Positions 2,410 through 19,106 of a stretch of 19,280 nt of DNA are shown here, in pieces. The translations under genes and the position numbers were made by a program. Within the stretch, counting starts at the first letter, position 1; each line of letters starts with the position of its first letter. Under the pieces are notes generated by a model. That model was not told the DNA's origin. It saw only the letters and a program-made list of their open reading frames with translations, and searched no databases. Source of the stretch: a bacterium (lineage in GTDB: Bacteria > Bacteroidota > Ignavibacteria > UBA10030); the NCBI GenBank assembly GCA_043803945.1, contig JAZDJN010000068.1, forward strand, positions 1 through 19,280. The letters are read 5' to 3'.

Positions 2410-5400
2410 GCGTTGTACTATCAGACTCAGGCACCTGCGGTTTCTGTGCTCAGCTCCCCGAGTAATGGTGCAACTGCGCAGCCTACTACGCTCACATTGA
2501 GCTGGACTGCATCCGCCGGTGCGACGAAGTACCATCTTCAGGTCTCAGCATCCTCGGCGTTTACACTTCTCGTTGTTGACGATTCTACACTCACTGGAAT
2601 ATCACGATCGGTTGGTCCTCTAGCAAACAATACAACATATTATTGGCGTGTGAGGGCGGGAAGCTCAGCAGGATGGAGTGCATTCTCCGGGAGTTGGAGC
2701 TTCACAACGGCCGCTATCTCCACGCTCCTCGGTGAGTACAAATCCGATGCCAACACGGTTCTCCTGATGCATATGAACGAAACCAGCGGCTCAACAGTGA
2801 GTGATGCAAGCAGTTATGGCAACAACGGCATCGCAACTGGGACAACGATCTCAGATGGAAAAATTAGTAAAGGGAGAAGTTTTAATGGTGCTGGTGATTA
2901 TATTTCTGTTCCTCATTCCTCGTCATTAAACTATTTGAGTGAATTGACTATTGAAGGATTCTTTAGAATAAGTTCTGCTGTAAATTATGCAGGCATCACC
3001 AAGGGAACGACTCAATGGGCTTATTCACTTGCTTTGATGGGTCAACGACTAGCGTTCACAAATGGAGCACCCGGTAATAGTGGTACAATAATGGCTGATT
3101 CCATTCCATCGAACACTTGGATTCATCTTGCGGCAATTATTTCAGGAGCAAATGTAAAGTTATATTTCAATGGCGTGAAAAGTGTGGAGTCAACTCTTTA
3201 TTATCCAATTACGAACAACACTGAAGAATTAACTATCGGCATCGATAAACCTGGCTCCGTAGAGTATTATAAAGGTCTAATCGACGAAGTTCGCATCTCG
3301 AATAAAGCCCGCTCGCCTCAGGAATTTAATCTTCAACTTCCTCCCAAAAATCTCTCTGTTTCCTTGGCGGGCTTGGCGGCTAATCTTTCCTGGCAGAATG
3401 GAGGCGGTGCAGTCGGATTGCTCCGGTATAAAATCTACCGCGGCTCCGATTCAACGAACGTTTCACTCATCGATTCAACAATTTCAACCTCATACTCGAA
3501 TTTAGGTCTTACCGCAGGTACGAAATATTATTATCGATTAAGCGCGGTTGATTCGACTGGTTTTGAAGGGGCAATGAGTTATGCGGTCAGTGCTGTTCCG
3601 CAAACCGGAGCCTCGGCGCCAACAGTTTCAACGAGTGCAGCATCCAGCATTACTTCTACATCTGCAACCTTAAACGGCTCTGTTAATCCGAACAGTTCAT
3701 CGACTACGGCGTATTTCGAGTGGAGCACGAACACGAGCTTTTCTCCACTTAATACCACTCCTGTGCAGAATATCGGTTCAGGAACTACTGCGAGCAATAT
3801 TTCAGCAAGTTTAACAAGTCTTACTCCTGGCACGACCTATTACTATCGGGTGTTTGCTCAAAATACCGGCGGTACCGTAAGAGGAACAACACAGAGCTTT
3901 TCTACAATTATTCAAGCTCCGGATGTTGTGACGTTATCATCTCCATCAAATGGTGCAAGCAGCCAGCAAGTTAGTGTATCCTTAAATTGGAATTCATCTG
4001 CGCGCGCAGTATCCTATCGTATTCAAGTTTCAACATCTCAAACATTTACTACTCTCATAGTGGACGACTCCACATTAACAACCACCGCCCGTCAAGTTTC
4101 GGGACTCTCAAATGGTGTTACGTACTATTGGCGTGTCAGCGCAAAGAATGCAGGTGGCACAAGCACTTGGTCTTCAACATGGAACTTCATCACAACAATA
4201 GTAGCTCCTGCAGCTCCAGCAATTACAGCACCGGCATCAGGATCAATAAACCAGCCGTTGAATCTGACCCTGAGCTGGACAGCTTCACTCACCGCGACTC
4301 GCTATCGCTTGCAAGTCTCAACCAGCTCGACGTTTTCTCCCTTGCTAGTTGACGATACAACACTCACATCGACTTCTAGACAGATCGGAGCGCTCTCCTA
4401 TTCAACAAAGTATTACTGGCGCGTAAGCGCTGGGAATTCAGGAGGAACGAGTTCCTATTCGACCACAGCAGATTTTACAACGATTCCCACACCGCCCGCG
4501 ACAATTAGTGTCAGTAACACCTTTACGTTCCCCGGTAAGAGCAGGGCTGGTGAATACACGGCGGCGGACTTCAGAATCATCGGACTGCCTGGATCGACCG
4601 ATGTTCCTCTAACCGATTTGCTTCCGGGTTCAAAGGGAAAAGACTGGCAGGTGTACTGGGATAATGGTGCATCGACGAATTATTTCGTCGAATTCGATGG
4701 AAGCAGTATATTCCAGTTTGGCCGAGGGAAAGCATTCTGGATTGTGGCAAAATCCCAGGTCACAATCAACCGATCGCTGACATACCCCTCCTTCAACACT
4801 TCCGGAGAAGCTGAGATTGCACTTCATGCCGGATGGAATCTCATCACGAATCCATTTTCAACAACAATTCCCTGGTCGAGAATACAAAGTGCCAATCAGA
4901 CCTCAGCGTCAATCTTCATCTTCAATGGCTCCTTTGCTTCCTCATCACTCTTTGAACCATACGTCGGGTATTACTACTTCAATGGATCGCCGGGTACGAC
5001 CCTCTCCGTACTGAAGGTGCCGTACTTTAGCCTCTATGGCAGTGTCGGCAAGCCGTTTGAAAATGTTTATGAAGGATGGAAAGTAACGATGATGCTTTCT
5101 TCTGAACAAGGACAAAGAAGCGAGACATGGTTCGGAGTATCCCGTAGCGCGAAGAATGAAATGGACGAACTCGATGTTCGGAAACCGCGAGCTCTCGGAG
5201 CCATTAATGATATGTTCTTCGATCGACCCAATTGGGATGACCGCTATACATCATTTGCTTCTGACATCCGGGAGAGAATTCATGATCTTGAGACGTGGGA
5301 TTTTACCGTGAATGTCGAGCCCTTGAAACGAGTTGTGCTTACATTTAGCGGCGTCGATGAAATTCCACTTCCTTACGAAGTCTACTTGCTCGATCATGCC

Positions 5401-5811
5401 AATGCTCAGTCTCTCAATCTGCGGAAAGACTCGATGTACAGCATTACAACGCCCTTGAAAAGCCTGCAGCTCTCCATCCTCATTGGCACAGAGGAAAAGA
5501 TCAGGGGGAAGGTCAAAGATATGTTGCCAAAAGAGTATTCGTTGAGCCAGAATTTTCCCAATCCATTTAATCTCTCAACGAGTTTCAACGTAATCATGCC
5601 GCGCCCTACCTCGGTGAAGCTTATGGTTTATAACATCCTTGGGCGGGTCGTTCGGACTCTCTTCACAGGCGACATGGAAACGGGAAGTTATTGGTTTACG
5701 TGGGATGGAAGGGACGATCGTCAATCGAGGGTACCAACCGGTGCTTATTACTGTCGTTTAGAAATTGTTGGGGAACGAACACTGATGACCAGGATGCTTT
5801 TAATTAAATGA
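1..5811 (+). CDS. Giant secreted multidomain surface protein, 5'-truncated by the window edge. Contains tandem right-handed parallel beta-helix (PbH1) modules, FN3-like domains, a LamG/concanavalin-like domain, a conserved pre-CTD module and a T9SS C-terminal sorting domain.
   Basis: Frame 1 is open from nt 1. Nt 1-93 translate to EDYHEQLGSPAIDAGDPGFSYANEPSPNGSR, matching the end of the internal module (GDYHERAGSLAIDAGNPASSYGSEPAPNGSR). The ORF-track start at 94 is therefore an internal GTG (Val), and the true start lies upstream of the window. PbH1-like repeats are present (e.g. ISGNSVGASGDGAGIYITNGSPVIEGNRII; PRIINNTICENSGPGIMISS). A LamG-like block runs about 2725-3325 (LLGEYKSDANTVLLMHMNETSG ... 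DEVRISNKARS). FN3-like blocks each end in a YYWRV...W.F.T motif (about 2431-2710 and 3343-4485). The C-terminus KEYSLSQNFPNPFN...VKLMVYNILGRVV...GAYYCRLEI (about 5536-5808) is a typical T9SS type-A sorting domain. Stop TGA at 5809-5811. Confidence 0.9.
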   Translation, partial: EDYHEQLGSPAIDAGDPGFSYANEPSPNGSRVNIGAYGNTAEAAKSSSGGLPTLTDYYVNASTGSNTTGDGTQTKPWKTITYSLGNITGTGRTLHIAAGTYNTTLGETFPILMKNGISLIGAGMDVSIIDASSSDMVIKCLSIVDAATRVEGFTVKGGKVTASSSAGAGIFISAGSMLKVANNKITGNINGSVGKGGGLYIENSSPWVVTNTISGNSVGASGDGAGIYITNGSPVIEGNRIISNVAGNANYGGGVFISGSTSAPRIINNLIIKNPEGGIICESYSKPRIINNTICENSGPGIMISSANPDTIMNNIISLNSGYGINESGTTSDPGKVWYNLFYANNSGVYNDEGTTEYYTVSTLNTTVSEAKNNLEGDPLFLDRKNGDYHERAGSLAIDAGNPASSYGSEPAPNGSRVNIGAYGNTAEAAKSIPSDLPNYSDYYVNASGGNNVTGDGSQSRPWQTITFALGQITGTGRMLHVAAGTYDTTLGETFPIVVKNSVSMVGAGKNQSILDASYTNLVLQCIGIVEPLTSIEGFTIKRGTLPLNFSSAAGVVVAAGSKLRITDNEIVENTNQSWGNGGGMYIANSSPAIVNNTISRNSPGTFGNGAGIYIYNSSPLIQNNTITNNKSGYTSYGSGIYVTGATSSPRILNNIITLNVEGGINCEGSSKPRIINNTISDNTTDGIVISSANPDSIINNIISLNSGYGINETNSISDPGKIWYNLFYSNSTGVYRDEGTSDYYTVSTLHASVAECKNNIEGDPMFINKIDGDYRLRIGSPAINTGDPGAPLDSDGSRADIGALYYQTQAPAVSVLSSPSNGATAQPTTLTLSWTASAGATKYHLQVSASSAFTLLVVDDSTLTGISRSVGPLANNTTYYWRVRAGSSAGWSAFSGSWSFTTAAISTLLGEYKSDANTVLLMHMNETSGSTVSDASSYGNNGIATGTTISDGKISKGRSFNGAGDYISVPHSSSLNYLSELTIEGFFRISSAVNYAGITKGTTQWAYSLALMGQRLAFTNGAPGNSGTIMADSIPSNTWIHLAAIISGANVKLYFNGVKSVESTLYYPITNNTEELTIGIDKPGSVEYYKGLIDEVRISNKARSPQEFNLQLPPKNLSVSLAGLAANLSWQNGGGAVGLLRYKIYRGSDSTNVSLIDSTISTSYSNLGLTAGTKYYYRLSAVDSTGFEGAMSYAVSAVPQTGASAPTVSTSAASSITSTSATLNGSVNPNSSSTTAYFEWSTNTSFSPLNTTPVQNIGSGTTASNISASLTSLTPGTTYYYRVFAQNTGGTVRGTTQSFSTIIQAPDVVTLSSPSNGASSQQVSVSLNWNSSARAVSYRIQVSTSQTFTTLIVDDSTLTTTARQVSGLSNGVTYYWRVSAKNAGGTSTWSSTWNFITTIVAPAAPAITAPASGSINQPLNLTLSWTASLTATRYRLQVSTSSTFSPLLVDDTTLTSTSRQIGALSYSTKYYWRVSAGNSGGTSSYSTTADFTTIPTPPATISVSNTFTFPGKSRAGEYTAADFRIIGLPGSTDVPLTDLLPGSKGKDWQVYWDNGASTNYFVEFDGSSIFQFGRGKAFWIVAKSQVTINRSLTYPSFNTSGEAEIALHAGWNLITNPFSTTIPWSRIQSANQTSASIFIFNGSFASSSLFEPYVGYYYFNGSPGTTLSVLKVPYFSLYGSVGKPFENVYEGWKVTMMLSSEQGQRSETWFGVSRSAKNEMDELDVRKPRALGAINDMFFDRPNWDDRYTSFASDIRERIHDLETWDFTVNVEPLKRVVLTFSGVDEIPLPYEVYLLDHANAQSLNLRKDSMYSITTPLKSLQLSILIGTEEKIRGKVKDMLPKEYSLSQNFPNPFNLSTSFNVIMPRPTSVKLMVYNILGRVVRTLFTGDMETGSYWFTWDGRDDRQSRVPTGAYYCRLEIVGERTLMTRMLLIK

Positions 5812-10036: not shown

Positions 10037-13000
10037 ATGAAAAGGTATCTGCTCTCTTTCTTTCTTGGTTTCAATCTTCTCTTGTTCGCAGATTTGAATG
10101 CCCAAACCATCGTACCGCAGGTCAATGCATTTGATTCTGCAAGTCCTCAAGTAGGCTTTCCCTTTTCAGATGGATTTGAGAATGGATTGGGCAATTGGAT
10201 TGTCAGTGGATCGGATTGGGACACAACATCTGCAACGTCAAGAACTGGAAGGTATTCGATTACCGAGAGCCGGATCGGGTACTATCCTGCAAATATTATT
10301 GCAACGATTACCTTAGCCGCCCCTTTGAATTTAAGCTCAGCAATATCTCCCGTGGTGAGATTCTGGCATAAATATTCTCTCGGAAGTAATGATAATTATT
10401 ATGTTGAGGTTTCGACGAATGGTGGAACAAGCTGGACAGCACTTAGAAGTTTTTATTCTTATTCCTCAGGTGCAATCCAAAATACATGGACGCTGGAGCA
10501 ATATGATCTAAAGAACTATCGCGGAGCATCAGTGAAGGTGCGATTCCGCCTGGAGTCGGATGGTACAAACCAGAGCGATGGCTGGAATATCGATGATGTA
10601 TCCATAACCGAATTAGAGCCGTCGGGATCCATTCCCTTTTCAGATGGATTTGAAAATGGATTGAGCAAATGGATCATCAGCGGATCGGATTGGGATACGA
10701 CGTCTGTGACTTCAAGAGCAGGAAATTCTTCGATCACAGAGAGCCGCACAGGATATTACCCGGCCAATGGCAATGCAACGATTACTCTCGCCACATCATT
10801 GAATTTAAGCTCGGCAATAGCTCCCGTGCTAAGATTCTGGCATAAATATTCTCTGGGAAGCAATGATAACTACTTTGTTGAGGTTTCAACGAATGGTGGA
10901 TCAAGTTGGACAACACTAAAAAGTTTTTATCCATATTCATCAGGGGCAATCCAAAGTACGTGGACACTGGAGCAATATGATCTAAAGAACTACCGTGGAA
11001 CAACAGTTAAGGTGCGATTCAGCCTGGAGTCGGACGGAACGAATCAGAGCGATGGCTGGAATATTGATGATGTATCCATAACTGAATTAGAGGCATCTGC
11101 ATCCTTGCCATTTTCAGATGGCTTCGAGAATGGATTGAGCAATTGGTTTGTAAGCGGCTCTGATTGGGACACAACGACTGCAACCTCAAGAGCTGGTAGG
11201 AGTTCGATTACTGAGAGCCGGCTTGGATATTATCCGGCGAATGGAAATGCAGCGATTACATTGGCTGTTCCTTTGAATCTAAGTTCGGCAATATCTCCCG
11301 TGTTGAGATTCTGGCATAAATATTCTCTCGGAAGCAATGATAATTACTATGTCGAGGTTTCAACGAATGGTGGAACAAGTTGGACAGCACTCAAAAGTTT
11401 TTATCCTTACTCCTCCGGAGCAATCCAAATCATGTGGACACTGGAGCAATATGATTTAAAAAACTATCGTGGTTCAGCGGTTAAGATACGATTCCGCCTG
11501 GAGTCGGATGGAACAAACCAGAGCGATGGCTGGAATATAGATGACGTATCCATAACTGAATTGGAGACATCGGCTTCTTTGCCCTTTTCAGATGGATTCG
11601 ATAATGGCTTGAGCAAATGGCTCTTCAGCGGATCGGATTGGGACACAATATCTACGACGTCAAGGACAGGAAGGTATTCGATTAACGACAGTCGTATCGG
11701 ATATTACCCGGCGAATGGAAATGCAACAATCACACTCGCGACCCCGTTGAATTTGAGTGCATCTATATCTCCTGTATTAAGATTCTGGCACAAAGCTATG
11801 ATTAACAAATACGATTATGCCTATGTTGAATTATCAACGGATGGCGGATCGGTCTGGATAAAATTAGGTCAATACGGTTACGACTTTTACCAGAGTACCT
11901 GGAAGATGGAGCAATACGACCTACAAAACTACCGTGGACCGACGGTGAAGATACGTTTTCGATTGTATGTTGATGGGAATACATCGGTAGCTGATGGATG
12001 GTATATCGACGATGTAGAAGTGAAGGAAAATCTAGCCACACCAACGCTCTCTCTTCCATTTAAAGATGGGTTTGAGAATGGACTCACCAATTGGATAGTG
12101 AGTGGATCGGATTGGGACACCACGTCTTCGACCTCAAGAACTGGAAGATCTTCGCTCACAGACAGCCGGATAGGATCTTACCCGATGAATGGAAATGCGA
12201 CTGTTACATTGGCAACTCCATTGAATTTGAGCTCTGCAGTATCTCCTTTGCTAAGCTTTTGGCACAAGGCGATGATCAATGATTATGATTACATGTATGT
12301 GGAAATATCAACGGACGGCGGATCCGTCTGGACAAAATTAGGTCAATACGGTTACGATTTTTACCAGAGCACCTGGACGATGGAACAATTCGATCTCCAA
12401 AATTACCGTGGATCGACAGTGAAGATACGGTTTCGATTGTATGCTGATGAGAACACCTCGGTTGCTGATGGATGGTATATTGACGATGTAGAAGTGAAGG
12501 AGAGAACAACGGCGCCAATGGTATCTCTTCCATTCATTGATGGTTTTGAAAATGGATTAAGTAACTGGATAATCAGCGGGTCGGATTGGGACACGACATC
12601 ACAAAATTATCGAACGGGACAATATGCAATTACGGAAAGTCGGCTTGGGAATTATCCCGATTATTCAAACGCATCAATCACACTCGCAGGATCATTAAAT
12701 TTAACATCAGCACTCTCTCCCGTTATACGATTCTGGCATAAGTACGCTACGGCTACCTATGAGAACTCTTATGTCGAGGTTTCTACGAACAACGGGAGCA
12801 ACTGGACTACTATTAAAACAATTAGCTATGGCACACAAAGCACATGGAAAATGGAGGAAATCAGTTTAAATAGTTATCGCGGTGGGACTATAAAAGTACG
12901 GTTCAGATTTAAATCTGACGACTCAAACAACAATGATGGTTGGTATATCGATGATGTACTCATCGCTGACTCTCCCTTGATCAAAGTTCTTTCACCGAAT

Positions 13001-16000
13001 GGCGGAGAGATGATCCAGCCGGGAACAACATGTAAAATCAGTTGGATTGCAGTTGGTTTAAGTGGCTCACGTCTTGAGTACAGTCTTGATGATACCAGCA
13101 ATTGGGTGTTTATCTCAAATATTGCCGCCACAACAGATAGCTATAACTGGCTTGTGCCGGGTGTCTCGTCATCTCGCTGCAGGATAAGAGTAAGCGATGT
13201 CAATAATTCGTTGATCAATGACATCAGTGATAGTATGTTTATTATAGGGGCGACCGGTTCCATGTTGCCATCAGTAACAACAGTAACTGCGACTTCAATC
13301 ACATCTTCGACCGCTTCACTGAACGGCACTATTAATCCGAATGGCTCTACTACAACTGCGTATTTCGAGTGGGGCACAAGCAGCGCACTTGCTTCGTATT
13401 CTACGACACAATCGCAATCGATTGGTTCAGGCACGAGTGCCATTACGTTCTCAGCAAGTTTATCAAGTTTAACTCTGAGTACCAACTATTATTTTCGTGC
13501 AGTAGGACAGAATAGTGCAGGTACACAGAAAGGATCGATTATTAGTTTCGTTACAGGCGGTGCGGTTGGCATTCCTACGATAACAAGTTTTTCCCCAACC
13601 TCCGGTCCAATTGGCACAGCAGTTACTATCACAGGCACAAACTTCAATCCCACCGCTTCCAATAATATCGTCTACTTTGGCGCCGTAAAGGCAACGGTGA
13701 CATTAGCCACTTCAACATCACTCACGGTGACCACACCGACAGGAGCCACCTATGCGCCGATCACAGTGACGGATACAACTACGCACCTAATGGCGTATTC
13801 TGCATCACCGTTCAATGTAACATTCACAGGTGGTGGATCTGTTACAGCAAGCTCTTTTGCAGTAAAGGTTGACTTCGCGACGGGGACTAATCCGTGTGGA
13901 TTAGCCATCGGTGATGTTGACGGAGATGGAAAAACCGACTTGGTGATTTGTAACAACACGTCAAACACAATATCTGTATATCGCAATACGGCGATAACTG
14001 GAACACTAGAGGCTAGTTCTTTCGCCGCAGGTGTGACTTTCGCAACAGCGGCCAGTCCAGTGAGTGTTGCACTCGCTGATTTTAATCGTGACGGCAGGTT
14101 AGATATTTTAGTTGCGAATTATGAGGCCTCGAGTGTTTCCATTCTACAGAATTCGAGCACTATTGGAAATATATCATTCAGATCGAAAGTAGATTTCAAC
14201 GTTGTCAGCCAGCCGTGGGGATTAGCCGTCGGAGATATCGACAAGGATGGAAAACCTGATTTTGCGGTGACCAACTATTTAAGTAGTATCGTTTCAGTAT
14301 TTAAAAATATCGAGAACGGACAGAATCTCTCCAATATCTCCTTTGCAACCAAAGTGGATTTGACAACAGCTGGATCGCAACCATTCGGCGTGGCACTTGC
14401 TGATATTGACTCTGATAGTAAGGTTGATCTAATTGTTTCGAATTATGTTTCTCAGAAAGTAAGTGTCTTTAAAAACAATAGCACCATCGGTGATATAAGT
14501 GCTGGATCCTTTCAAACAAGAGTGGATTTTTCAACGGGTACGAATTTAAGAGATGTAGTTATAAGTGACATTGATGGAGATGGAAAGCTTGATCTTGTGC
14601 TTGGCAATGATGGAGGAAATGTTGTTTCAATCATGCGAAATACGAGTAGTGTCGGTTCTATTACAGCCTCATCGTTTTCTCCAAAGGTAGACTACGTTGT
14701 AGGTAACTGGCCCGAGCATTTGGTGATTGCTGATATTGATGGCGACGGGAAATCGGATATTATAACAGGTAACAATGGTAGTGGAACGTTATCCATGTTG
14801 AAGAATAAAAGCACTATTGGCAATATTGATGCAACATCTTTTTCCTCCAAGATAGATTTCACAGTCGGTTCGTTGCCTGTGAATCTCAGTGTTGGTGTTG
14901 CAGATTTCGATATGGACCAAAAGCCAGATTTGGCTGTACTTAATGAATACAGTAATACCATATCAATATTTCGCAATACTATTGGTACTCCTAAAATAAT
15001 GGGCGAGTACCAACCTGATTCCAACACAGTTCTCCTTCTTCATATGAACGAAACCAGCGGGACAAAACTAACTGATGAAAGCGGCAAATCAAACCACGGA
15101 ACAGCCACTGAATCTCTTAAGCCTGAGAGTGGTAAATTCGGCAATGGATGGGGAGTTACGAATAAGAACCAGCAAATCATCGTTCAACACCATCCGACGC
15201 TGAACGCCGGCAACGAACCAATGACAATCGAGATGTGGGTAAAAGCAAGAATGTCGCCGACATATGGGAAACGGCTTGCAAGCAAGTTCCATACTGGTCC
15301 GCCATATAGAGGATGGATACTTGCTCTGACCCCGAATAATTATCGGTTCGGGGGAATGACAAACACGGGCCAAACAGAGAGCGATGTAACAAATGTCTCG
15401 GGCCCCACTTCTCTCGCAGATGGGAAATGGCATCACGTGGCGCTGGAGATATCCCTAACGGAAATGAGGGTGTATGTTGACGGTGTTCTGGAAGGGACAG
15501 CTTCAATTACCAATGTCAACTCCACAGACAACGCGGGGATAATCTATTTGAACGAAACAGGAGGCGAAGATTGGTCGGGAGTCTTTGATGAGTTTCGTAT
15601 TTCGAATGTTGCTCGCTCACCACAAGAATTCAATCTCCAGCTTCCGCCCAAAAGTCTCTTGGCGTCCTCGGCGTCCTTGGCGGTTAACTTGTCATGGCAA
15701 AATGGGGGCGGCGCAGTTCCATTCATGCGATACAAAATTTACAGCGGTAACGATTCTTTAAATGTCTGGCTTATCGATTCCACAACGAATACGAACTTCA
15801 CGAATTCCGGATTAGCGCAGGGGACAAGGTACTTCTATCGTGTGAGTGCAGTCGACTCAACTGGATTTGAAGGGGTAAAGAGCTACGCAGTGAGTGCCAT
15901 ACCGCAAACCGGCGTCTCAGCGCCAACAGCCACAACAAGTGCAGCATCTGCTATTGCTTCTATGTCAGCTACGCTGAACGGTTCTGTCAATCCAAACGGA

Positions 16001-18373
16001 TCATCAACCACCGCCTATTTCGAATGGAGCACAAACTCGAGCTTCTCTCCACTGAACACAACGTCATCGCAGAACATTGGCTCAAGCACTTCAGCAACAA
16101 ATATTTCAGCAAGTTTAACAAGTCTTACTCCTGGCACGACCTATTACTATCGAGTGTTTGCTCAAAACACCGGCGGCACTGTGCGGGGAACAACACAGAA
16201 CTTTACCACACTCATTCAAGCCCCGGATGTTGTGACACTCTCTTCTCCTACAAACGGGGCAAGCAGCCAGCCCGTGACTGTCACATTAAATTGGAGCTCA
16301 TCTGCACGCGCAGCATCCTACCGCATTCAGGTCTCGACATCTCAATTGTTTAGCTCGCTGCTCCTTGATGATTCAACAATCACCACAATTTCACGGCAGT
16401 TATCTGGTCTCTCAGGTAGCATCACATATTACTGGCGTGTCAGTGCAAAGAATGCCGGGGGCACCACTGCATGGTCTTCCACATGGAGCTTCACAACCGT
16501 GGCGGGCCTTCCATCCGCTCCCACACTCGCTGCGCCGGCAGATAATGCCACAGGCTTAGCCATTAACCCGACATTGAGTTGGAACAGTGTAATTGGAGCT
16601 ACCTCATATCGTTTGCAGATCTCTACACTCAGTAATTTCTCCTCATTGGTTCTCAATCAGTCAGGAATAACAGGGCTCTCATTCCAGGCGACAGGCTTAT
16701 CGAACAGCACTACGTATTACTGGCGAGTGAGTGCCACCAATACTGGTGGAGAAGGCTCATTCTCATCCACGAGTTCATTTACAACGATCATGAGTTTACC
16801 CTCTGCTCCAACGCTCTCATCCCCCGCCAATAATGCAACGAATCAAGCAAGCAGCGTACTTCTTGGATGGTCTTCTATTTCAGGAGGAACGTTTTATCAT
16901 CTTCAAGTATCAACAAATCAGACGTTCTCTTCTCTGAGTATTGAAGACTCTCTTCTTACTACGAACTCGAAGCAGTTAAGTAACCTTGCTACAAATTCAA
17001 CATACTATTGGCGAGTCAGAGCAAAGAATGCTGCCGGATATGGAAGTTGGTCTTCGGTTTATAGCTTTAGTACCATCGCATCCAAAACAGTCACATCGCC
17101 AGGAACTATATTTCCTTCTAATCCTACCTCATCGACTGACTACCGGCTGGTAAGTTTCCCTGGTACTACATCGCTCATGACCTCCCAGGTATTTTCAGGT
17201 TCTCAAAACACCGACTGGAGAATCTATCGCGATAATGGTTCTGCTGTCCCGAACCATCTTTCAGAGCTTTCTGCCAGCTCGTCCTTAAATATCGGTGAGG
17301 GATATTGGCTGCTCAGCAAAGGAACACTCAATTTCTCTCGCTCTCTCACAATGCCTCAACTCTCCAGTGATGGTACATACAGCATTAATCTCCGCAGTGG
17401 ATGGAACATCATCGGCAATCCGTTTGATGTTGCTGTTCCGTGGGATCTCATTCGCAGTGTTAATGGATTTTCATCCAATCGAATCATCTCTTCGTATGAA
17501 GGTGCTGCAGGATTTCAAAGTGCAGTAACACTGGAGCCATTTAAAGGATATTACTTTAACAGTGCATCGACAAGCTTAAAAATTCCATATCCATTCCCGG
17601 CAATGAACGTTATGCCTTTGGAGCAAGCCCAAATCGATTGGAAGATTCAGCTTGTTCTAGAGACCGATATCAATAAGGATGCAGAGAATTATCTCGGCAT
17701 TGCTCCAGCCGCGAAATTGGATCTTGACGAGTTCGATCAGCCTAAGCCACCAATGATGTTCGATCAGGGATTTCTCTATTTCTCACGGCCTGAGTGGGAT
17801 AAGCGATATGGATATTTCAATACAGATTATCGTCCTTCGGTGGGCGACGGACAGGTGTGGGAATTTGTCGTCTCGAATCCAAGGCGGTCTACATTCACTC
17901 TCCGTTTCCCTGATGTCGACAACGTCCCACTCATGTATGATGTCATTTTAATATGCCAACAGAATGCGACTCCGAGGAATCTGCGTCAGAAAAAATTTGC
18001 AGAGTATCAGATGGTGGGGGAGAAGATGCAATTCAAGTTGATAGTGGGGAAGCAAACGTACGCTGATGAGCAGGTAAAGCTGTTATTGCCGCGTGAATTT
18101 GTGCTTGCCCAGAACTATCCCAATCCCTTCAATCCATCGACACAAATCAGCTATTGGGTTCCGAAGGAATCCGCGATCCGGATTGAAGTCTGGTCGATTC
18201 TTGGCCAACATATTACAACTCTTGTTGATAGGGTGCATCCTCCGGGTGAACACAGTGTTATTTGGTATGCGCTGGATCAATCTGGAAGGTCAGTTTCGAG
18301 CGGTGTCTATTTCTATAAGCTTGTGGTCAATAACCAGGTTGTTGCCACCATGAAGATGATGTACTTACGATAA
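10037..18373 (+). CDS. Giant (2778 aa) secreted T9SS-cargo protein. Order of domains: six MAM-like (immune-inhibitor-A-type) domains, Ig-like domain, FN3-like domain, IPT/TIG domain, 7 FG-GAP/VCBS repeats, LamG, FN3-like domains, conserved pre-CTD module, T9SS CTD.
   Basis: The signal peptide is MKRYLLSFFLGFNLLLFADLNA-Q. Six units start at PFSDGFENGL..W and end at DGW.IDDV (10157-12976). An Ig-like block follows (VLSPNGGEMIQPGTTCKISW...CRIRVSD). The IPT/TIG block is IPTITSFSPTSGPIGTAVTITGTNF...VYFG...LTVTTPTGA (about 13571-13775). Seven repeats of the type F.TG..P..L.IGDVDGDGK.DL...N....T.S...N lie at about 13850-14990. The LamG-like block is IMGEYQPDSNTVLLLHMNETSG ... DEFRISNVARS (about 15000-15620). 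FN3-like blocks carry the YYWRV motif (about 15640-17080). The CTD is REFVLAQNYPNPFNPSTQISYWVPKESAIRIEVWSILGQ...GVYFYKL (about 18095-18370). Stop TAA at 18371-18373. Confidence 0.92.
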   Translation: MKRYLLSFFLGFNLLLFADLNAQTIVPQVNAFDSASPQVGFPFSDGFENGLGNWIVSGSDWDTTSATSRTGRYSITESRIGYYPANIIATITLAAPLNLSSAISPVVRFWHKYSLGSNDNYYVEVSTNGGTSWTALRSFYSYSSGAIQNTWTLEQYDLKNYRGASVKVRFRLESDGTNQSDGWNIDDVSITELEPSGSIPFSDGFENGLSKWIISGSDWDTTSVTSRAGNSSITESRTGYYPANGNATITLATSLNLSSAIAPVLRFWHKYSLGSNDNYFVEVSTNGGSSWTTLKSFYPYSSGAIQSTWTLEQYDLKNYRGTTVKVRFSLESDGTNQSDGWNIDDVSITELEASASLPFSDGFENGLSNWFVSGSDWDTTTATSRAGRSSITESRLGYYPANGNAAITLAVPLNLSSAISPVLRFWHKYSLGSNDNYYVEVSTNGGTSWTALKSFYPYSSGAIQIMWTLEQYDLKNYRGSAVKIRFRLESDGTNQSDGWNIDDVSITELETSASLPFSDGFDNGLSKWLFSGSDWDTISTTSRTGRYSINDSRIGYYPANGNATITLATPLNLSASISPVLRFWHKAMINKYDYAYVELSTDGGSVWIKLGQYGYDFYQSTWKMEQYDLQNYRGPTVKIRFRLYVDGNTSVADGWYIDDVEVKENLATPTLSLPFKDGFENGLTNWIVSGSDWDTTSSTSRTGRSSLTDSRIGSYPMNGNATVTLATPLNLSSAVSPLLSFWHKAMINDYDYMYVEISTDGGSVWTKLGQYGYDFYQSTWTMEQFDLQNYRGSTVKIRFRLYADENTSVADGWYIDDVEVKERTTAPMVSLPFIDGFENGLSNWIISGSDWDTTSQNYRTGQYAITESRLGNYPDYSNASITLAGSLNLTSALSPVIRFWHKYATATYENSYVEVSTNNGSNWTTIKTISYGTQSTWKMEEISLNSYRGGTIKVRFRFKSDDSNNNDGWYIDDVLIADSPLIKVLSPNGGEMIQPGTTCKISWIAVGLSGSRLEYSLDDTSNWVFISNIAATTDSYNWLVPGVSSSRCRIRVSDVNNSLINDISDSMFIIGATGSMLPSVTTVTATSITSSTASLNGTINPNGSTTTAYFEWGTSSALASYSTTQSQSIGSGTSAITFSASLSSLTLSTNYYFRAVGQNSAGTQKGSIISFVTGGAVGIPTITSFSPTSGPIGTAVTITGTNFNPTASNNIVYFGAVKATVTLATSTSLTVTTPTGATYAPITVTDTTTHLMAYSASPFNVTFTGGGSVTASSFAVKVDFATGTNPCGLAIGDVDGDGKTDLVICNNTSNTISVYRNTAITGTLEASSFAAGVTFATAASPVSVALADFNRDGRLDILVANYEASSVSILQNSSTIGNISFRSKVDFNVVSQPWGLAVGDIDKDGKPDFAVTNYLSSIVSVFKNIENGQNLSNISFATKVDLTTAGSQPFGVALADIDSDSKVDLIVSNYVSQKVSVFKNNSTIGDISAGSFQTRVDFSTGTNLRDVVISDIDGDGKLDLVLGNDGGNVVSIMRNTSSVGSITASSFSPKVDYVVGNWPEHLVIADIDGDGKSDIITGNNGSGTLSMLKNKSTIGNIDATSFSSKIDFTVGSLPVNLSVGVADFDMDQKPDLAVLNEYSNTISIFRNTIGTPKIMGEYQPDSNTVLLLHMNETSGTKLTDESGKSNHGTATESLKPESGKFGNGWGVTNKNQQIIVQHHPTLNAGNEPMTIEMWVKARMSPTYGKRLASKFHTGPPYRGWILALTPNNYRFGGMTNTGQTESDVTNVSGPTSLADGKWHHVALEISLTEMRVYVDGVLEGTASITNVNSTDNAGIIYLNETGGEDWSGVFDEFRISNVARSPQEFNLQLPPKSLLASSASLAVNLSWQNGGGAVPFMRYKIYSGNDSLNVWLIDSTTNTNFTNSGLAQGTRYFYRVSAVDSTGFEGVKSYAVSAIPQTGVSAPTATTSAASAIASMSATLNGSVNPNGSSTTAYFEWSTNSSFSPLNTTSSQNIGSSTSATNISASLTSLTPGTTYYYRVFAQNTGGTVRGTTQNFTTLIQAPDVVTLSSPTNGASSQPVTVTLNWSSSARAASYRIQVSTSQLFSSLLLDDSTITTISRQLSGLSGSITYYWRVSAKNAGGTTAWSSTWSFTTVAGLPSAPTLAAPADNATGLAINPTLSWNSVIGATSYRLQISTLSNFSSLVLNQSGITGLSFQATGLSNSTTYYWRVSATNTGGEGSFSSTSSFTTIMSLPSAPTLSSPANNATNQASSVLLGWSSISGGTFYHLQVSTNQTFSSLSIEDSLLTTNSKQLSNLATNSTYYWRVRAKNAAGYGSWSSVYSFSTIASKTVTSPGTIFPSNPTSSTDYRLVSFPGTTSLMTSQVFSGSQNTDWRIYRDNGSAVPNHLSELSASSSLNIGEGYWLLSKGTLNFSRSLTMPQLSSDGTYSINLRSGWNIIGNPFDVAVPWDLIRSVNGFSSNRIISSYEGAAGFQSAVTLEPFKGYYFNSASTSLKIPYPFPAMNVMPLEQAQIDWKIQLVLETDINKDAENYLGIAPAAKLDLDEFDQPKPPMMFDQGFLYFSRPEWDKRYGYFNTDYRPSVGDGQVWEFVVSNPRRSTFTLRFPDVDNVPLMYDVILICQQNATPRNLRQKKFAEYQMVGEKMQFKLIVGKQTYADEQVKLLLPREFVLAQNYPNPFNPSTQISYWVPKESAIRIEVWSILGQHITTLVDRVHPPGEHSVIWYALDQSGRSVSSGVYFYKLVVNNQVVATMKMMYLR
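10157..12976 (+). repeat. Six tandem in-frame copies of a 474-bp (158-codon) MAM-like domain unit.
   Basis: The Pro codon of the (F/I/L)PF(S/K/I)DGF motif falls at 10160, 10634, 11108, 11582, 12056 and 12530, exactly 474 nt apart each time. Copies 1-3 share one C-terminal half (KYSLGSNDNYYVEVSTNGG.SW...ESDGTNQSDGWNIDDVSITE). Copies 4-5 share another (KAMIN.YDY.YVE.STDGGSVW...NTSVADGWYIDDVEVKE). Copy 6 is divergent. Confidence 0.92.
15587..16492 (+). repeat. Dispersed paralogous block shared, without gaps, with 3283-4188 of the first giant gene.
   Basis: The offset is 12304 nt at both ends of the block: DE(V/F)RISN at 3283 and 15587, and W(N/S)F at 4180 and 16484. The protein blocks are colinear (QEFNLQLPPK...YRVSAVDSTGFEG...SATLNGSVNPN.SSTTAYFEWSTN.SFSPLNTT...NISASLTSLTPGTTYYYRVFAQNTGGTVRGTTQ...IQAPDVVTLSSP.NGASSQ...YYWRVSAKNAGGT). 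A 53-nt run is perfectly identical (3796-3848 = 16100-16152). Confidence 0.9.
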
Positions 18374-18382
18374 TATAATGCA

Positions 18383-18571
18383 CTCCATCCTTCGATGAAC
18401 TCAGGATGGAGATTCTGGAGGAGAAGAAGAAAAACTCCACAGTGAGCTTGTCGAACTGTGAAGTCAGAAGATCTTGTGAAAGCTATCAATCTCCACCCTT
18501 CGATGAACTCAGGATGGAGATTCTGGAGGAAAAGAAAAAAAACTCCACAGTGAGCTTGTCGAACTGTGGAG
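18383..18571. repeat. Two tandem composites (108-bp period), each made of hairpin A, a purine-rich linker and hairpin B, immediately upstream of the GIY-YIG gene.
   Basis: Hairpin A is CTCCATCC-TTCGATGAACTCA-GGATGGAG at 18383-18411, and again at 18491-18519 with the stem arm CTCCACCC. Hairpin B is CTCCACAG-TGAGCTTGTCGAA-CTGTG(A/G)AG at 18435-18463 and 18543-18571. The linkers ATTCTGGAGGAGAAGAAGAAAAA and ATTCTGGAGGAAAAGAAAAAAAA are also conserved. Confidence 0.9.
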
Positions 18572-18607
18572 AAAGAAGGCGCAGTAAATGAAATAAGGAG
18601 GGAGGAC

Positions 18608-18907
18608 ATGAATAAGACGTGGTACGTCTATATCTTGCTATGTTCGGACAACTCATATTACACAGGTAGAACATCGGAGCTCATCAGACGTCTTCAAGAA
18701 CATAAACGAGGGATCGGAAGTGAGTACACAAGAATTCGTCGACCTGTGAATTTATTGTGGTATGATGTATTTCCAAACGAGTTTCAAGCTCACTGTGCCG
18801 AGAGGCAGATAAAAGGATGGATAAGAGCAAAGAAAGAAGCTTTAATGAAAAATGATTTTGAATTACTGATAAAATTATCACGTAGCAGGTCTTCTAAAGA
18901 TGTGTAG
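18608..18907 (+). CDS. Small stand-alone GIY-YIG nuclease family protein (UPF0213/COG2827-like).
   Basis: The sequence MNKTWYVYILLCSDNSYYTGRTSELIRRLQEHKRG ... AERQIKGWIRAKKEAL contains the GIY (VYIL) and YIG (YYTG) motifs. It also has the conserved Arg region and the ...E.QIKGW.R.KK tail typical of this family. The start is placed at ATG 18608 because AAGGAGGGAGG lies directly upstream. The ORF-track start at 18566 lies inside hairpin repeat B. Confidence 0.85.
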   Translation: MNKTWYVYILLCSDNSYYTGRTSELIRRLQEHKRGIGSEYTRIRRPVNLLWYDVFPNEFQAHCAERQIKGWIRAKKEALMKNDFELLIKLSRSRSSKDV

Positions 18908-18914
18908 GATATTC

Positions 18915-19106
18915 CTCCATCCTTCGACAAGCCTTCGCCCTGAGCTCAGGCCGAAGGGCTCAGGATGGAAGCGGTTTCTTTTTATAGATGGAAATATTAT
19001 TTAGAACTCCACAGTGAGCTTGTCGAACTGTGGAGTAAGGAAAAACCATTCTCCATCCGTTGCCAAGCTTTCGCTCTGAGTCCAGGCCGAAGAGCTCAGG
19101 CCAGAG
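18915..19106. repeat. Downstream hairpin-repeat cluster: an A-type stem with a nested palindrome in its loop, a perfect B hairpin, and a degenerate A-type copy.
   Basis: At 18915-18970, CTCCATCC-TTCGACAAGC[27-nt palindromic insert containing CCTGAGCTCAGG]TCA-GGATGGAA. At 19007-19035, CTCCACAG-TGAGCTTGTCGAA-CTGTGGAG. At 19051-19106, CTCCATCC-GTTGCCAAGCTTTCGCTCTGAGTCCAGGCCGAAGAGCTCA-GGCCAGAG (degenerate). Confidence 0.8.

Follow-up and report, generated by a model that had tools for sequence, protein, structure and literature searches.

The 99-aa GIY-YIG nuclease gene at positions 18608-18907 of the window, the stretch of 19,280 nt analysed here that makes up the whole contig, has around it seven hairpins of a single family, whose orientation alternates along the array, and the locus is probably an Ssn-like system, in which a single-domain GIY-YIG gene is bracketed by, and co-evolves with, its own family of hairpin repeats. 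By analogy with the experimentally characterised Ssn enzymes, the nuclease most likely recognises and cuts the flanking hairpin as single-stranded DNA (ssDNA). The kind of system is already known, and both the nuclease branch and the hairpin type found here differ from those published. A sequence-only reading of the locus had proposed a nuclease-repeat partnership analogous to REP/RAYT. That proposal is supported: none of the three outcomes named beforehand as speaking against it (hairpins lacking positional association with GIY-YIG genes, homologous genes devoid of such flanks, stem substitutions free of covariation) was found. The same reading was not aware of any formal description of such a system; one exists, published in March 2025, in which Ssn GIY-YIG nucleases are flanked by NTS/SRM hairpin repeats that are cut as ssDNA (Chenal et al. 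2025, Nat Commun; PMC11893778). The features of the array are as follows.

18383-18411, + strand: hairpin A1, CTCCATCC-TTCGATGAACTCA-GGATGGAG, with a perfect 8-bp stem and the TTCGA...CTCA reading on the + strand
18435-18463, - strand: hairpin B1, a family member with the TTCGA...CTCA reading on the - strand; its 3' arm, CTGTGAAG, leaves one stem pair broken
18491-18519, + strand: hairpin A2, whose 5' arm, CTCCACCC, gives one C.A mismatch in the stem
18543-18571, - strand: hairpin B2, with a perfect 8-bp stem; closest upstream flank of the nuclease gene
18595-18601, + strand: Shine-Dalgarno sequence AAGGAGG, 6 nt 5' of the ATG, read directly
18608-18907, + strand: single-domain GIY-YIG nuclease gene, 99 aa, with the catalytic set conserved
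18785-18797, + strand: CAAGCTCACTGTG within the nuclease coding sequence, the exact reverse complement of part of hairpin B
18915-18970, + strand: hairpin A3, whose outer stem is TCCATCC/GGATGGA; between its TTCGA...CTCA edges runs a long inner helix, a near-palindrome of 26 nt; closest downstream flank of the nuclease gene
19006-19036, - strand: hairpin B3, with a perfect 9-bp stem
19051-19106, + strand: hairpin A4, paralogous to A3 but degenerate, with 84% identity to it over 50 nt

The elements that the earlier reading had listed (A and B hairpins, linker and downstream copies, including the perfect B and the degenerate A that correspond to B3 and A4) were all found at the positions it gave. 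Its two tandem A-linker-B composites are present as an 88-nt unit occurring twice, 108 bp apart, at 93% identity, but B1 is imperfect where a perfect form had been quoted, and A2 carries its mismatch. The palindrome nested in A3 was likewise recovered, as a near-palindrome within a 40-nt 'loop', with a length of 26 nt instead of 27. A1 begins 10 nt past the stop codon of an upstream gene encoding 2778 aa and is separated from B1 by a purine-rich linker of 23 nt. B1 and A2 together form an 85-bp inverted doublet without a gene, inside the 55-158 bp range of such doublets elsewhere; B3 and A4 form another of ~100 bp. The span from B2 to A3, 428 bp, falls among the sizes of units that carry the gene (348-468 bp). 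Exact copies of the loop motif TTCGAYRARCTCA number five in the 19.3-kb window, each within 250 bp of the gene, and six matches were obtained at up to one mismatch (0.28 in shuffles; 0 of 200 shuffles reached six). The copy of CAAGCTCACTGTG in the coding sequence corresponds to the 3' half of the hairpin B loop plus 5 nt of the arm, and was absent at the equivalent coding position in homologues.

The GIY-YIG domain (Pfam PF01541, E=3e-17) is the one domain of the protein, covering residues 5-76 of 99, and no extra DNA-binding domain is present. The catalytic residues Y8, Y17/Y18, R28, H32 and E65 show little or no variation across 37 homologues; most homologues have lengths of about 95-130 aa, and the family carries the signature ERQIKGW.RAKKEAL. 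The predicted fold (beta-beta-alpha-alpha-beta-alpha, pLDDT 90.5) is UPF0213/Slx1-like. A PDB profile search returned 1zg2 (E=4.8e-24), 1ywl (1.6e-19) and Slx1 (6e-4), and the same proteins held the top ranks in Foldseek, where Slx1 superposed with an rmsd of 1.8 A over 73 columns. By BLASTP the protein is 41% identical to UPF0213 BH0048, which scored 92.6 bits against the family HMM, versus 55-67 bits for NTS-type Ssn. Identity to NTS-flanked Ssn-type proteins, used in this comparison as a stand-in for N. meningitidis SsnA, was 31-35% (pairwise E 1e-8 to 6e-13). The published Ssn criteria are cd10448 membership in CDD, or a tblastn match at E<1e-10 with SsnA of N. meningitidis, in a single-domain protein of ~94 aa that has no extra DNA-binding domain (PMC11893778). 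These sequence comparisons suggest that the window protein belongs to a sister branch of NTS-type Ssn, one that may fall outside the published cut-off, and, because the protein is closer to UPF0213 BH0048 than to NTS-type Ssn, transfer of the ssDNA-cutting mechanism to it is an extrapolation. The branch is large, with 27,433 clusters at 50% identity (E<=1e-3). Searches of NCBIfam, PADLOC and PHROGs gave no match to families of anti-phage defence or of phages. BapE of Caulobacter is reportedly a characterised small SOS-induced endonuclease, possibly of this nuclease group; no weight was placed on this.

Hairpins of this family accompany homologous genes elsewhere. Among 85 homologous metagenome genes, ~85% have such a hairpin within 200 bp and ~15% have none detectable. 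Positional association with GIY-YIG genes had been set beforehand as a test, and it was borne out: with the count restricted to non-coding DNA, hairpin density was 1.85/kb within 250 bp of 80 homologous genes, a five-fold enrichment over other non-coding DNA (0.36/kb); in long ORFs more than 1 kb away it was 0.006/kb. Overall, density fell from 1.6-3.0/kb within 100 bp of the gene to 0.007-0.03/kb beyond 2 kb, and scrambled-edge controls yielded no hairpins. Orientation follows a strong rule, with hairpins usually lying upstream in one orientation and downstream in the other, in the manner of terminal inverted repeats: the closest upstream copy is B in 41 cases and A in 12, as with B2 in the window, and the closest downstream copy is A in 50 and B in 11, as with A3. 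Where hairpins were detected on both sides, 36 of 42 pairs are inverted and 30 of 42 have the B..A layout. An inverted flank match scoring at least 15 was found in 44 of 82 genes and in no shuffles (examples are 28/28 in the Sphingobium locus L214 and 49/51 in L148). In most genomes the gene has an inverted copy on each side, the two often making up perfect terminal inverted repeats of 26-52 bp. In the window, the inverted match between the two hairpins next to the gene covers only 10 nt, and the clearest local repeat is the direct A-linker-B duplication (108-bp); both points were counted against the preferred interpretation.

Copies also occur away from such genes. Single copies and gene-less inverted doublets are scattered through intergenic DNA, some hairpins surround unrelated genes (for example the acyl-carrier-protein gene in L134), and among viral contigs selected by the motif only 1 of 120 carries such a nuclease gene, most copies there being far from any such gene and many having stems of only 3-5 bp. 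Since many copies lie far from a nuclease gene, the association is one of genes flanked by repeats, not of repeats adjoining genes. The same holds for REP/RAYT. A scan of species genomes with CTCC-N4-loop-N4-GGAG, proposed by the sequence-only reading, gave only six matches in six unrelated genomes and none near a GIY-YIG gene; it is little informative because the CTCC/GGAG stem is rare. The hairpins were absent at phage-encoded homologues, at more distant plasmid homologues (including those from Legionella, Cupriavidus and Xanthomonas), at E. coli yhbQ and at a decayed, stop-interrupted nuclease copy on a Sphingomonas paeninsulae plasmid. The exact window protein was found in no contig besides the window itself.

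Units with CCGYTYR...YRARCGG at their ends fall into two size classes: those lacking the gene measure 55-158 bp (n=28, with a further one of 214 bp), those containing it 348-468 bp (n=27). The gene-less doublets and gene-carrying units have an identical end type. The background of repeats in other intergenic DNA and around unrelated genes could be taken to mean that ordinary intergenic palindromic repeats and small non-essential genes merely share tolerant gaps, co-located with no functional link. This is most improbable in view of the five-fold enrichment, the fixed orientation rule, the constant spacing between the gene and its perfect inverted repeats, the bimodal unit sizes and the partition of repeats by nuclease branch described below.

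The hairpin structure is under selection: its outer stem varies in sequence and covaries, the unpaired segments TTCGA and CTCA are conserved, and the inner pair or helix covaries. In copies picked by the loop alone, 71% of cells were paired, compared with 49% in shuffles and 27-35% with slid partners, and the covariation score was 0.548 versus 0.18, so that stem covariation stands far above the controls, in line with the earlier reading. The A and B loops differ at three positions, among them a compensatory change (T6-A9 versus C6-G9), and across 150 copies the inner pair was paired in 93% of cells as C-G, G-C or U-A. Because this inner pair covaries, the 13-nt 'loop' is an internal loop, with TTCGA on the 5' side and CTCA on the 3' side, that an inner helix closes. 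This helix is a single base pair in minimal copies and is long in 'nested' ones, which corrects the anatomy given by the sequence-only reading. Long 'loops' had also been considered as insertions of one mobile hairpin into another, an explanation dropped in favour of a variable inner helix. Genuine nested hairpin copies do occur (L039, L063 and L093).

Stem mismatches were A.C in 42 cases and G.T in 15, with the asymmetry present in upstream and downstream copies alike, which argues against a role at the mRNA level and for one folded DNA strand. The bearing is on whether the hairpins act in cis as RNA structures within the nuclease mRNA, those upstream hiding the ribosome-binding site and those downstream serving as terminator or stabiliser, with no recognition by the nuclease. 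In Sphingomonads the upstream hairpin does contain, in its 3' part, a GAAGGA Shine-Dalgarno sequence 5-8 nt ahead of the start codon. Overlap between the downstream hairpin and the stop codon is frequent, and the flanks fold well as RNA (z = -4.0 and -4.6). A purely RNA-level function is nevertheless very unlikely: the repeats are met in either orientation, in arrays, in doublets that lack a gene and beside unrelated genes; downstream copies show A.C and not G.U mismatches on the mRNA strand; no terminator-like T tract follows the hairpins; and the sister enzyme Ssn does not bind RNA (PMC11893778). A simple promoter/terminator scan was empty at the hairpins, and they were rejected as terminators. 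An Rfam scan of the window and 12 related loci gave no family above threshold, only weak recurrent matches to RF02901.

Nuclease branch and hairpin class partition cleanly, the window branch having TTCGA..CTCA hairpins only and the published Ssn branch NTS-SRM only. The published SRM motif, HGTCWYN(0-2)YYVSBRHN(0-5)WNVSBRGN(0-2)RNCYNB, was not found within 500 bp of any of 90 genes of the window's branch (108 kb). As a control, the expression finds NTS itself and SRMs beside all six NTS-type genes; these six carry their SRMs in an inverted, tag-outward layout, and none has a TTCGA..CTCA hairpin. Since only 71% of published Ssn homologues have an SRM (PMC11893778), the SRM is an associated rather than a defining feature of Ssn; conversely, ssnA is present in 81% of genomes rich in SRMs (PMC11893778). 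This partition, together with the cutting of its flanking hairpin as ssDNA by the sister family (PMC11893778), bears out the partnership idea.

The cassette is present or absent, and exchanged, between related genomes. It lies between nrdR and trmJ in Sphingobium and is absent in Rhizorhapis, and Sphingobium strains have swapped it (allele exchange) within flanks that are 98-100% identical. The nrdR-trmJ site is occupied across Sphingobium and Sphingomonas, so the repeats flank a usually single-copy nuclease gene kept at one chromosomal site over long periods. No target-site duplication was found in 39 of 56 units, and where present it was mostly 1-2 nt, consistent with chance; no excision product was seen. 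On this account we infer, rather than observe, that the repeats are mobile. Three doublets were flanked by TTAAG.

Allelic replacement within near-identical flanks and the lack of target-site duplication would also be expected of a homing-type selfish nuclease gene that lands or stays in pre-existing REP-like repeats made by something else, the repeats being its target or homology arms and not its products. The many copies far from any nuclease gene fit this as well, as does the incapacity of a GIY-YIG enzyme for strand transfer, the fold being that of a hydrolase with strand transfer beyond its own chemistry. Such a history is unlikely all the same. An independent origin of the repeats is hard to reconcile with the strict one-to-one match, in different phyla, of each nuclease branch with its hairpin class; no further enzyme comes up repeatedly as a candidate in the neighbourhoods examined, where no Y1 transposase was present either; and the protein has no separate DNA-binding domain of the homing-endonuclease kind.

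For the preferred Ssn-like reading, a mechanism may be proposed by analogy with the Neisseria and Wolbachia Ssn enzymes, which cleave ssDNA beside the hairpin in a site- and strand-specific manner and are inactive on dsDNA and RNA (PMC11893778). The protein would bind the folded hairpin on ssDNA in one orientation, the bound strand being 5'-stem-TGAGC..GTCGAA-stem, the G.T wobble-tolerant one, with 5'-CTCCACAG-TGAGCTTGTCGAA-CTGTGGAG-3' as a predicted substrate. It would cut the ssDNA a few nucleotides 5' of the hairpin and would not act on dsDNA or RNA. More speculatively, repeat copies could be cut as ssDNA at replication forks, in incoming transforming DNA or in recombination intermediates, and subsequent repair or gene conversion between copies could make the repeats uniform, disperse them and take the gene between them along. 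A benefit to the host, if any, could lie in recombination or transformation control, as in Neisseria.

It is also conceivable, although doubtful, that the UPF0213-like branch forms, outside the published Ssn clade and independently of it, another very large group of ssDNA nucleases specific for hairpins, that the units of ~0.35-0.47 kb and the 55-158-bp doublets are mobile autonomous and non-autonomous elements, and that UPF0213/YazA/YhbQ proteins generally are structure- or sequence-specific ssDNA nucleases. From the Ssn work it is established that a GIY-YIG domain on its own can recognise a hairpin on ssDNA and cleave next to it, and that the genes live among their own repeats (PMC11893778). 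The window locus would carry this principle beyond the NTS/SRM class, to a sister branch linked with another hairpin module, which is highly conserved and escapes the published search motif. It would thereby enlarge the catalogue of enzyme/site pairs usable as ssDNA tools, give UPF0213-like proteins a testable function, and explain a repeat that litters metagenomic assemblies and is a source of spurious ORFs (peptides ...PSTSSG, FDKLR and LSLSKG). Whether the elements move, and how movement could be driven by a hydrolase that lacks strand-transfer chemistry, are questions that can be put concretely to the inverted-end cassettes, the gene-less doublets and the Sphingobium allele swap. If truly mobile, the units would be among the smallest self-contained mobile units known, and the first with a GIY-YIG hydrolase as their only protein.

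Several known systems were compared with the locus. Integron attC sites and type III toxin-antitoxin repeat arrays were rejected: the locus has neither an integrase nor conserved R'/R'' boxes, and its repeats lie on both sides of the gene and in both orientations. The consensus of Rfam RF02901, AaHKsRNA41 (Aggregatibacter sRNA 41), contains GCUGAGCUUGCCGAAGC ... GGUUCGGCAAGCUCAGC, a B-then-A doublet of nearly the same motif. Membership was ruled out by scores far under the gathering threshold of 97 (25.3 bits in the window and 21-31 bits in L199); from its sequence, AaHKsRNA41 may be a transcribed doublet of a related repeat. Insertion sequences and MITEs are resembled in that gene-carrying (348-468 bp) and gene-less (55-158 bp) units share inverted ends, but target-site duplication is missing, and there is no DDE or HUH transposase and no known transposase fold. 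The lack of target-site duplication is shared with IS200/IS605, as are hairpin ends probably read as ssDNA, although the ends are inverted here and same-strand there.

REP/REPIN elements, imperfect palindromes 20-40 bp long that pair up as inverted doublets, have a conserved GTAG tag and an associated HUH Y1 (IS200-like) transposase, RAYT (TnpA_REP). The present repeats are alike in being hairpins with conserved unpaired nucleotides and covarying stems, in forming inverted doublets and in flanking a usually single-copy nuclease gene at a long-stable chromosomal site. They differ in that the sole gene between the window repeats encodes a GIY-YIG hydrolase and not an HUH/Y1 transposase, which makes a covalent DNA intermediate impossible, and in that the hairpin consensus has no GTAG tag, its conserved part lying inside the hairpin and not 5' of it. 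The CGTC-tagged REPs of Di Nocera et al. 2013, which include Neisseria dRS3, are likewise short palindromic repeats, mostly head-to-head dimers, and in 2013 had no known enzyme of their own (PMC3733652); they correspond to the NTS/SRM class now tied to Ssn. Identity with them was ruled out by loop length and tag, their stems being 8-9 bp with 4-5 nt loops and an unpaired CGTC tag, whereas here the apical module is at least 13 nt and the tag is base-paired.

The closest relatives in sequence and fold are UPF0213 proteins (BH0048, PDB 1ZG2; EF2693, PDB 1YWL; E. coli YhbQ; B. subtilis YazA), with profile E values of 5e-24 and 2e-19 (rounded) to BH0048 and EF2693, and eukaryotic Slx1, a structure-selective nuclease for branched DNA (PMC7017083, PMC8287910). 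E. coli yhbQ, however, is without such hairpins, and Slx1 differs in having a zinc-finger domain and requiring Slx4. Full-text literature on the motif sequence and on UPF0213/YhbQ yielded nothing on such a pairing; that on GIY-YIG with REP or MITE eventually led to the Ssn paper (PMC11893778). Ssn was shown there by experiment to bind and cut its flanking hairpin as ssDNA and not to bind RNA, and its authors too remark on the IS-like architecture and the REP/RAYT analogy (PMC11893778). The window branch differs from Ssn in being 31-35% identical to NTS-flanked Ssn proteins and nearer UPF0213 BH0048, in its apical module (TGAGC..GTCGAA, 13 nt or longer with an internal pair, as against a GC-rich stem and 3-5-nt loop in NTS/SRM), and in that the published search motif matches none of its hairpins (0/90 loci). 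It agrees with Ssn in encoding a single-domain GIY-YIG protein of about 94-100 aa, in the dispersed, clustered and mostly intergenic distribution of the repeats and their wide phylogenetic spread, and in having inverted hairpin repeats on both sides of the gene with the conserved tag outward (B2 upstream and A3 downstream in the window); Bacteroidota-type copies, read in their inferred functional orientation, even begin with the (T/C)GTCAT tag of NTS.

The nuclease gene is located in the final 900 bases of the contig, and its product consists of one GIY-YIG domain (Pfam PF01541, E=3e-17). Seven hairpin copies of one family, alternating strictly in orientation, were found round the gene; A copies read TTCGA...CTCA on the + strand and B copies on the - strand. 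The features of the locus are as follows:

18383-18411, hairpin A1, upstream of the nuclease gene
18435-18463, hairpin B1, upstream of the nuclease gene, one broken pair
18491-18519, hairpin A2, upstream of the nuclease gene, one broken pair
18543-18571, hairpin B2, upstream of the nuclease gene
18608-18907, + strand, GIY-YIG gene of 99 codons with a strong ribosome-binding site (AAGGAGG)
18915-18970, hairpin A3, downstream of the nuclease gene, inner palindrome of 26 nt
19006-19036, hairpin B3, downstream of the nuclease gene
19051-19106, hairpin A4, downstream of the nuclease gene

The hairpin layout described in the sequence-only reading was accurate save for small details (the broken pairs of B1 and A2, and the 26 nt of the A3 palindrome). 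The exact loop motif occurs five times in 19.3 kb, always at the nuclease locus, and the shuffled window gave 0.28 matches with up to one mismatch allowed. The A-linker-B unit occurs twice, at a spacing of 108 bp and with 93% identity; this being a local direct duplication, it is also a copying unit in the window. The gene-proximal hairpins B2 and A3 do not form a clean inverted repeat. Over 13 nt of the coding sequence, CAAGCTCACTGTG (18785-18797), there is exact reverse complementarity to a portion of hairpin B, and this stretch would base-pair with B copies of the 5' leader; the codons at this position are unrelated in homologues, and the segment could be a gene-conversion relic from a hairpin or a site of regulatory pairing.

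The upstream neighbour of the array (10037-18373) encodes a 2778-aa protein with a C-terminal tail of type IX secretion. About seven tandem repeats of ~170 aa with a GWNIDDV motif, FG-GAP/VCBS-like repeats and fibronectin-like modules were seen in this protein, and 10 nt separate the end of its gene from the first hairpin. A second long ORF (94-5811) encodes 1905 aa. The best protein relatives are from Ignavibacteriales and Bacteroidota and, like the type IX secretion tail, indicate the FCB group; the window is the complete contig of a MAG.

In the first three relatives inspected (one Ignavibacteriales MAG and two metagenome or MAG contigs), the gene-adjoining hairpins kept the loop edges TTCGA(C)...(G)CTCA on differing stems (GTCACCC, GTCATGC, GTCATGG, ACATCC, ACACCC). 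Eighty metagenomic loci were then gathered via protein alignment and scanned for TTCGA...CTCA bounded immediately by a perfect stem, the loop being 80 nt or shorter. Up to 100 bp from the gene, hairpin density was 1.6-3.0 per kb; past 2 kb it was 0.007-0.03 per kb, and three scrambled versions of the loop edges gave zero matches with the same finder and loci. Because the repeats avoid coding DNA, the comparison was redone against non-coding DNA only, which gave 1.85 per kb near the gene, 0.36 per kb in distant non-coding DNA (0.006 per kb in long ORFs) and thus a five-fold enrichment at the gene. With a slightly relaxed finder, a copy lay within 200 bp of ~85% of 85 genes. The family also has copies far from the gene, dispersed through intergenic DNA in numbers that extrapolate to the order of a hundred per genome; at the enrichment measured, coincidence is an extremely improbable explanation. 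An unrelated acyl-carrier-protein gene beside a serine-palmitoyltransferase-like gene was also bracketed by hairpins (locus L134, 407-871), a parallel to the NTS repeat clusters reported at particular genes in Neisseria.

For analysis of structure, every TTCGA-N4-CTCA in gene-bearing loci was taken regardless of its flanks (170 distinct copies), and pairs were counted on an ungapped alignment of 150 of these. Cells were paired in 71% of cases versus 49% in shuffles and 27-35% with the partner slid by 1-3 columns, and the covariation score was 0.548 versus 0.18. At the five loop-proximal stem positions, 76-93% of copies were paired and as many as five pair types occurred. In the loop, position 6 paired with position 9 in 93% of the copies, the pair being C-G, G-C or U-A (T-A in the window's A copies, C-G in its B copies), and in copies with a long 'loop', including A3 and A4, an inner helix is stacked on this pair. 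The element is therefore an outer stem, an internal loop (5' TTCGA, 3' CTCA) and an inner helix of variable length, and its structure is under selection. True nesting of a whole hairpin within another was found at L039, L063, L093, L142 and in the 'nested' ends of Sphingobium.

Stem mismatches in the TTCGA reading were A.C in 42 and G.T in 15 cases (events partly non-independent), alike in upstream and downstream copies, so that it is the complementary TGAGC..GTCGAA strand that keeps G.T wobbles at both unit ends. This asymmetry is expected if one DNA strand folds and is read in the same way at either end, and is not expected of mRNA structure; action of the hairpins at the mRNA level is accordingly very unlikely.

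Partial tandem duplications were seen inside hairpins at L194 (~5000-5300 and the other strand), L073 (4019-4081) and L001 (10312-10356), for example 16-nt units TGCTTCGAGAGCCTCA x5, 19-nt units with CCTCA at their end, and units of 23 nt; the breakpoints fall on or close to the CTCA/TGAG edge and may mark sites of breaks. Annotated homologues often end in HPSTGSG, RPSTSSG or HPSINSG (proteins P0038, P0071, P0080, P0104, P0106), which is the translated downstream hairpin (CC TTCGAC..GCTCA GG), and repeat-derived peptides probably also yield spurious small ORFs in annotations. Rfam RF02901 (Aggregatibacter sRNA), whose consensus includes the doublet TGAGCTTGCCGAA...TTCGGCAAGCTCA, gave weak, recurrent matches at 18379-18525 (- strand) of the window and 257-391 of L199; Pasteurellaceae may transcribe a related repeat.

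Orientation relative to the gene was scored over the 85 genes with the relaxed finder, B being the orientation in which the sense strand reads stem-TGAGC..GTCGAA-stem. The nearest upstream copy was B in 41 and A in 12 cases, and the nearest downstream copy, which often overlapped the stop codon, was A in 50 and B in 11. Where both flanks were detected, 36 of 42 pairs were inverted, 30 of them as B..A. The flanks form long inverted repeats at many loci (28/28 at L214, 29/29 at L218, 31/31 at L202, 49/51 at L148), and an inverted flank match score of at least 15 was reached at 44 of 82 genes and in none of the shuffles. Delimited by their proteobacterial ends, CCGYTYR...YRARCGG, gene-carrying units measured 348-468 bp (n=27) and gene-less derivatives 55-158 bp (n=28, plus one of 214 bp); no consistent target-site duplication was found at these units. 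The window fits this scheme, with a gene-carrying unit of 428 bp (B2-gene-A3) and gene-less doublets of 85 bp (B1-A2) and ~100 bp (B3-A4). Three gene-less doublets in differing contexts were flanked by a 5-nt direct repeat, TTAAG (L145 1378-1450, L056 6301-6371) or CTTAA (L177 9852-9944), which could reflect target preference or duplication of one sub-family; most units lack a flanking repeat.

At one group of loci, from Sphingomonadaceae, the unit separates nrdR from a trmJ-like gene for a SpoU-type methyltransferase; the flanks are 70-85% identical from genome to genome. The order nrdR-cassette-trmJ was found in complete Sphingobium genomes and a Sphingomonas replicon; in Rhizorhapis the cassette is absent (nrdR-52 bp-trmJ) and the 5.4-kb locus was hairpin-free throughout in three assemblies. 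Two Sphingobium genomes have identical NrdR and flanks 98-100% identical, yet their cassettes are 45-72% identical, the divergent stretch running from just past the nrdR stop codon into the opening codons of trmJ. One of the two is similar to the simple-ended cassette of Sphingobium sp. SCG-1, the other to the nested-end cassette of metagenomic contig L172, whose NrdR is 97% identical to that of S. faniae. The cassette is thus long-lived at one site, like RAYT genes, yet exchanged as a block. The Sphingobium nuclease ORF lacks a stop codon and continues in frame through the right-hand hairpin into the methyltransferase gene (L214 3042-4136, L216, L218, L172 9998-11047), from which gene callers predict a GIY-YIG-SpoU fusion of 349-364 aa. 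In sphingomonads (L142, L165, L172, L191) a Shine-Dalgarno-like GAAGGA 5-8 nt ahead of the start codon belongs to the upstream hairpin's 3' edge (..TCGAAGGA..), so that leader-RNA folding could gate translation.

A profile of 37 relatives matched the UPF0213 NMR structures 1ZG2 (E=5e-24) and 1YWL (E=2e-19), and Slx1 weakly. With the confident AlphaFold model (pLDDT 90.5), the top Foldseek matches were again the UPF0213 structures, followed by Slx1 (rmsd 1.8-2.8 A over ~72 residues) and, after it, the N-terminal domain of UvrC. In the alignment of relatives, the catalytic residues Tyr, Tyr, Arg, His and Glu are invariant or nearly so. The family is very large, with 27,433 cluster representatives (50% identity) at E<=1e-3 and 9,345 at 1e-10; defence, phage and NCBIfam models gave no match to the nuclease. 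Such flanking hairpins were absent from E. coli yhbQ, from plasmid-borne, more distant homologues in Legionella, Cupriavidus and Xanthomonas, and from phage-encoded homologues. The latter include those of jumbo phages RHph_Y65 of Rhizobium (L223) and RP13 of Ralstonia (L225), ~50% identical to a consensus composed for the nuclease family; the gene can thus occur where the repeats are missing. On a Sphingomonas paeninsulae plasmid, a homologue located between rnc and era (L226 3001-3270) is hairpin-free, carries an interrupting stop codon and looks like a decayed copy.

The REP/RAYT-like partnership of nuclease and hairpins proposed in the sequence-only reading is supported, and this kind of system is real. 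That reading knew of no formal description; one exists (Chenal et al., Nat Commun 2025, PMC11893778), and literature searches on the hairpin motif sequence, and on GIY-YIG with REP, REPIN or MITE, yielded nothing else. SsnA of Neisseria meningitidis is a 94-aa, single-domain GIY-YIG protein (CDD cd10448) whose target, NTS, is a hairpin repeat that extends dRS3; SsnA binds NTS solely as ssDNA and on one strand, cuts a few nucleotides upstream, and is inactive on dsDNA and RNA (PMC11893778). The Ssn-related motif (SRM) lies near 71% of homologous genes, on both sides in 42%, and 81% of genomes with >200 SRMs encode an Ssn homologue; the authors likened NTS-ssnA-NTS to an insertion sequence and drew the REP/RAYT parallel (PMC11893778).

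The published SRM, converted to a regular expression that recognises NTS, had no match within 500 bp of 90 genes of the window's branch. Viral contigs were scanned for NTS itself, and six of the 119 loci obtained held a GIY-YIG gene of clearly different type (YILAS.RNGTLY.GVT...). All six were SRM-flanked, upstream on the sense and downstream on the antisense strand, and none had the TTCGA..CTCA hairpin. These NTS-flanked proteins stood in for meningococcal SsnA in the following comparison:

Identity to the window protein and score against the HMM of its family
Own branch: 147-157 bits
UPF0213 BH0048: 41% identity, 93 bits
NTS-flanked Ssn-type proteins: 31-35% identity, 55-67 bits
E. coli YhbQ: 30% identity, 51 bits

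Each nuclease branch thus has its own repeat class in the same tag-outward layout. This reciprocal partition is strong evidence for the predicted reading of the hairpin by the protein; that the gene is of homing type and parasitises repeats that arose independently is an unlikely explanation. As a partner of its hairpins, and by analogy with the sister family, the nuclease would most likely bind the hairpin in folded form on ssDNA, in a single orientation, and cleave 5' of it. More speculatively, cuts followed by repair between copies might drive the spread and homogenisation of the repeats, with the gene carried along, and the host might employ the system to modulate recombination or transformation.

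The system belongs to the kind published in 2025. The evidence favours a sister branch of Ssn with its own cognate hairpin class. What is new here is this branch, with a distinct, very widespread hairpin class missed by the published motif, and evidence of cassette-like behaviour. The putative functional strand of Bacteroidota-type copies opens with the same (T/C)GTCAT tag as NTS, which hints at common descent of both repeat classes.
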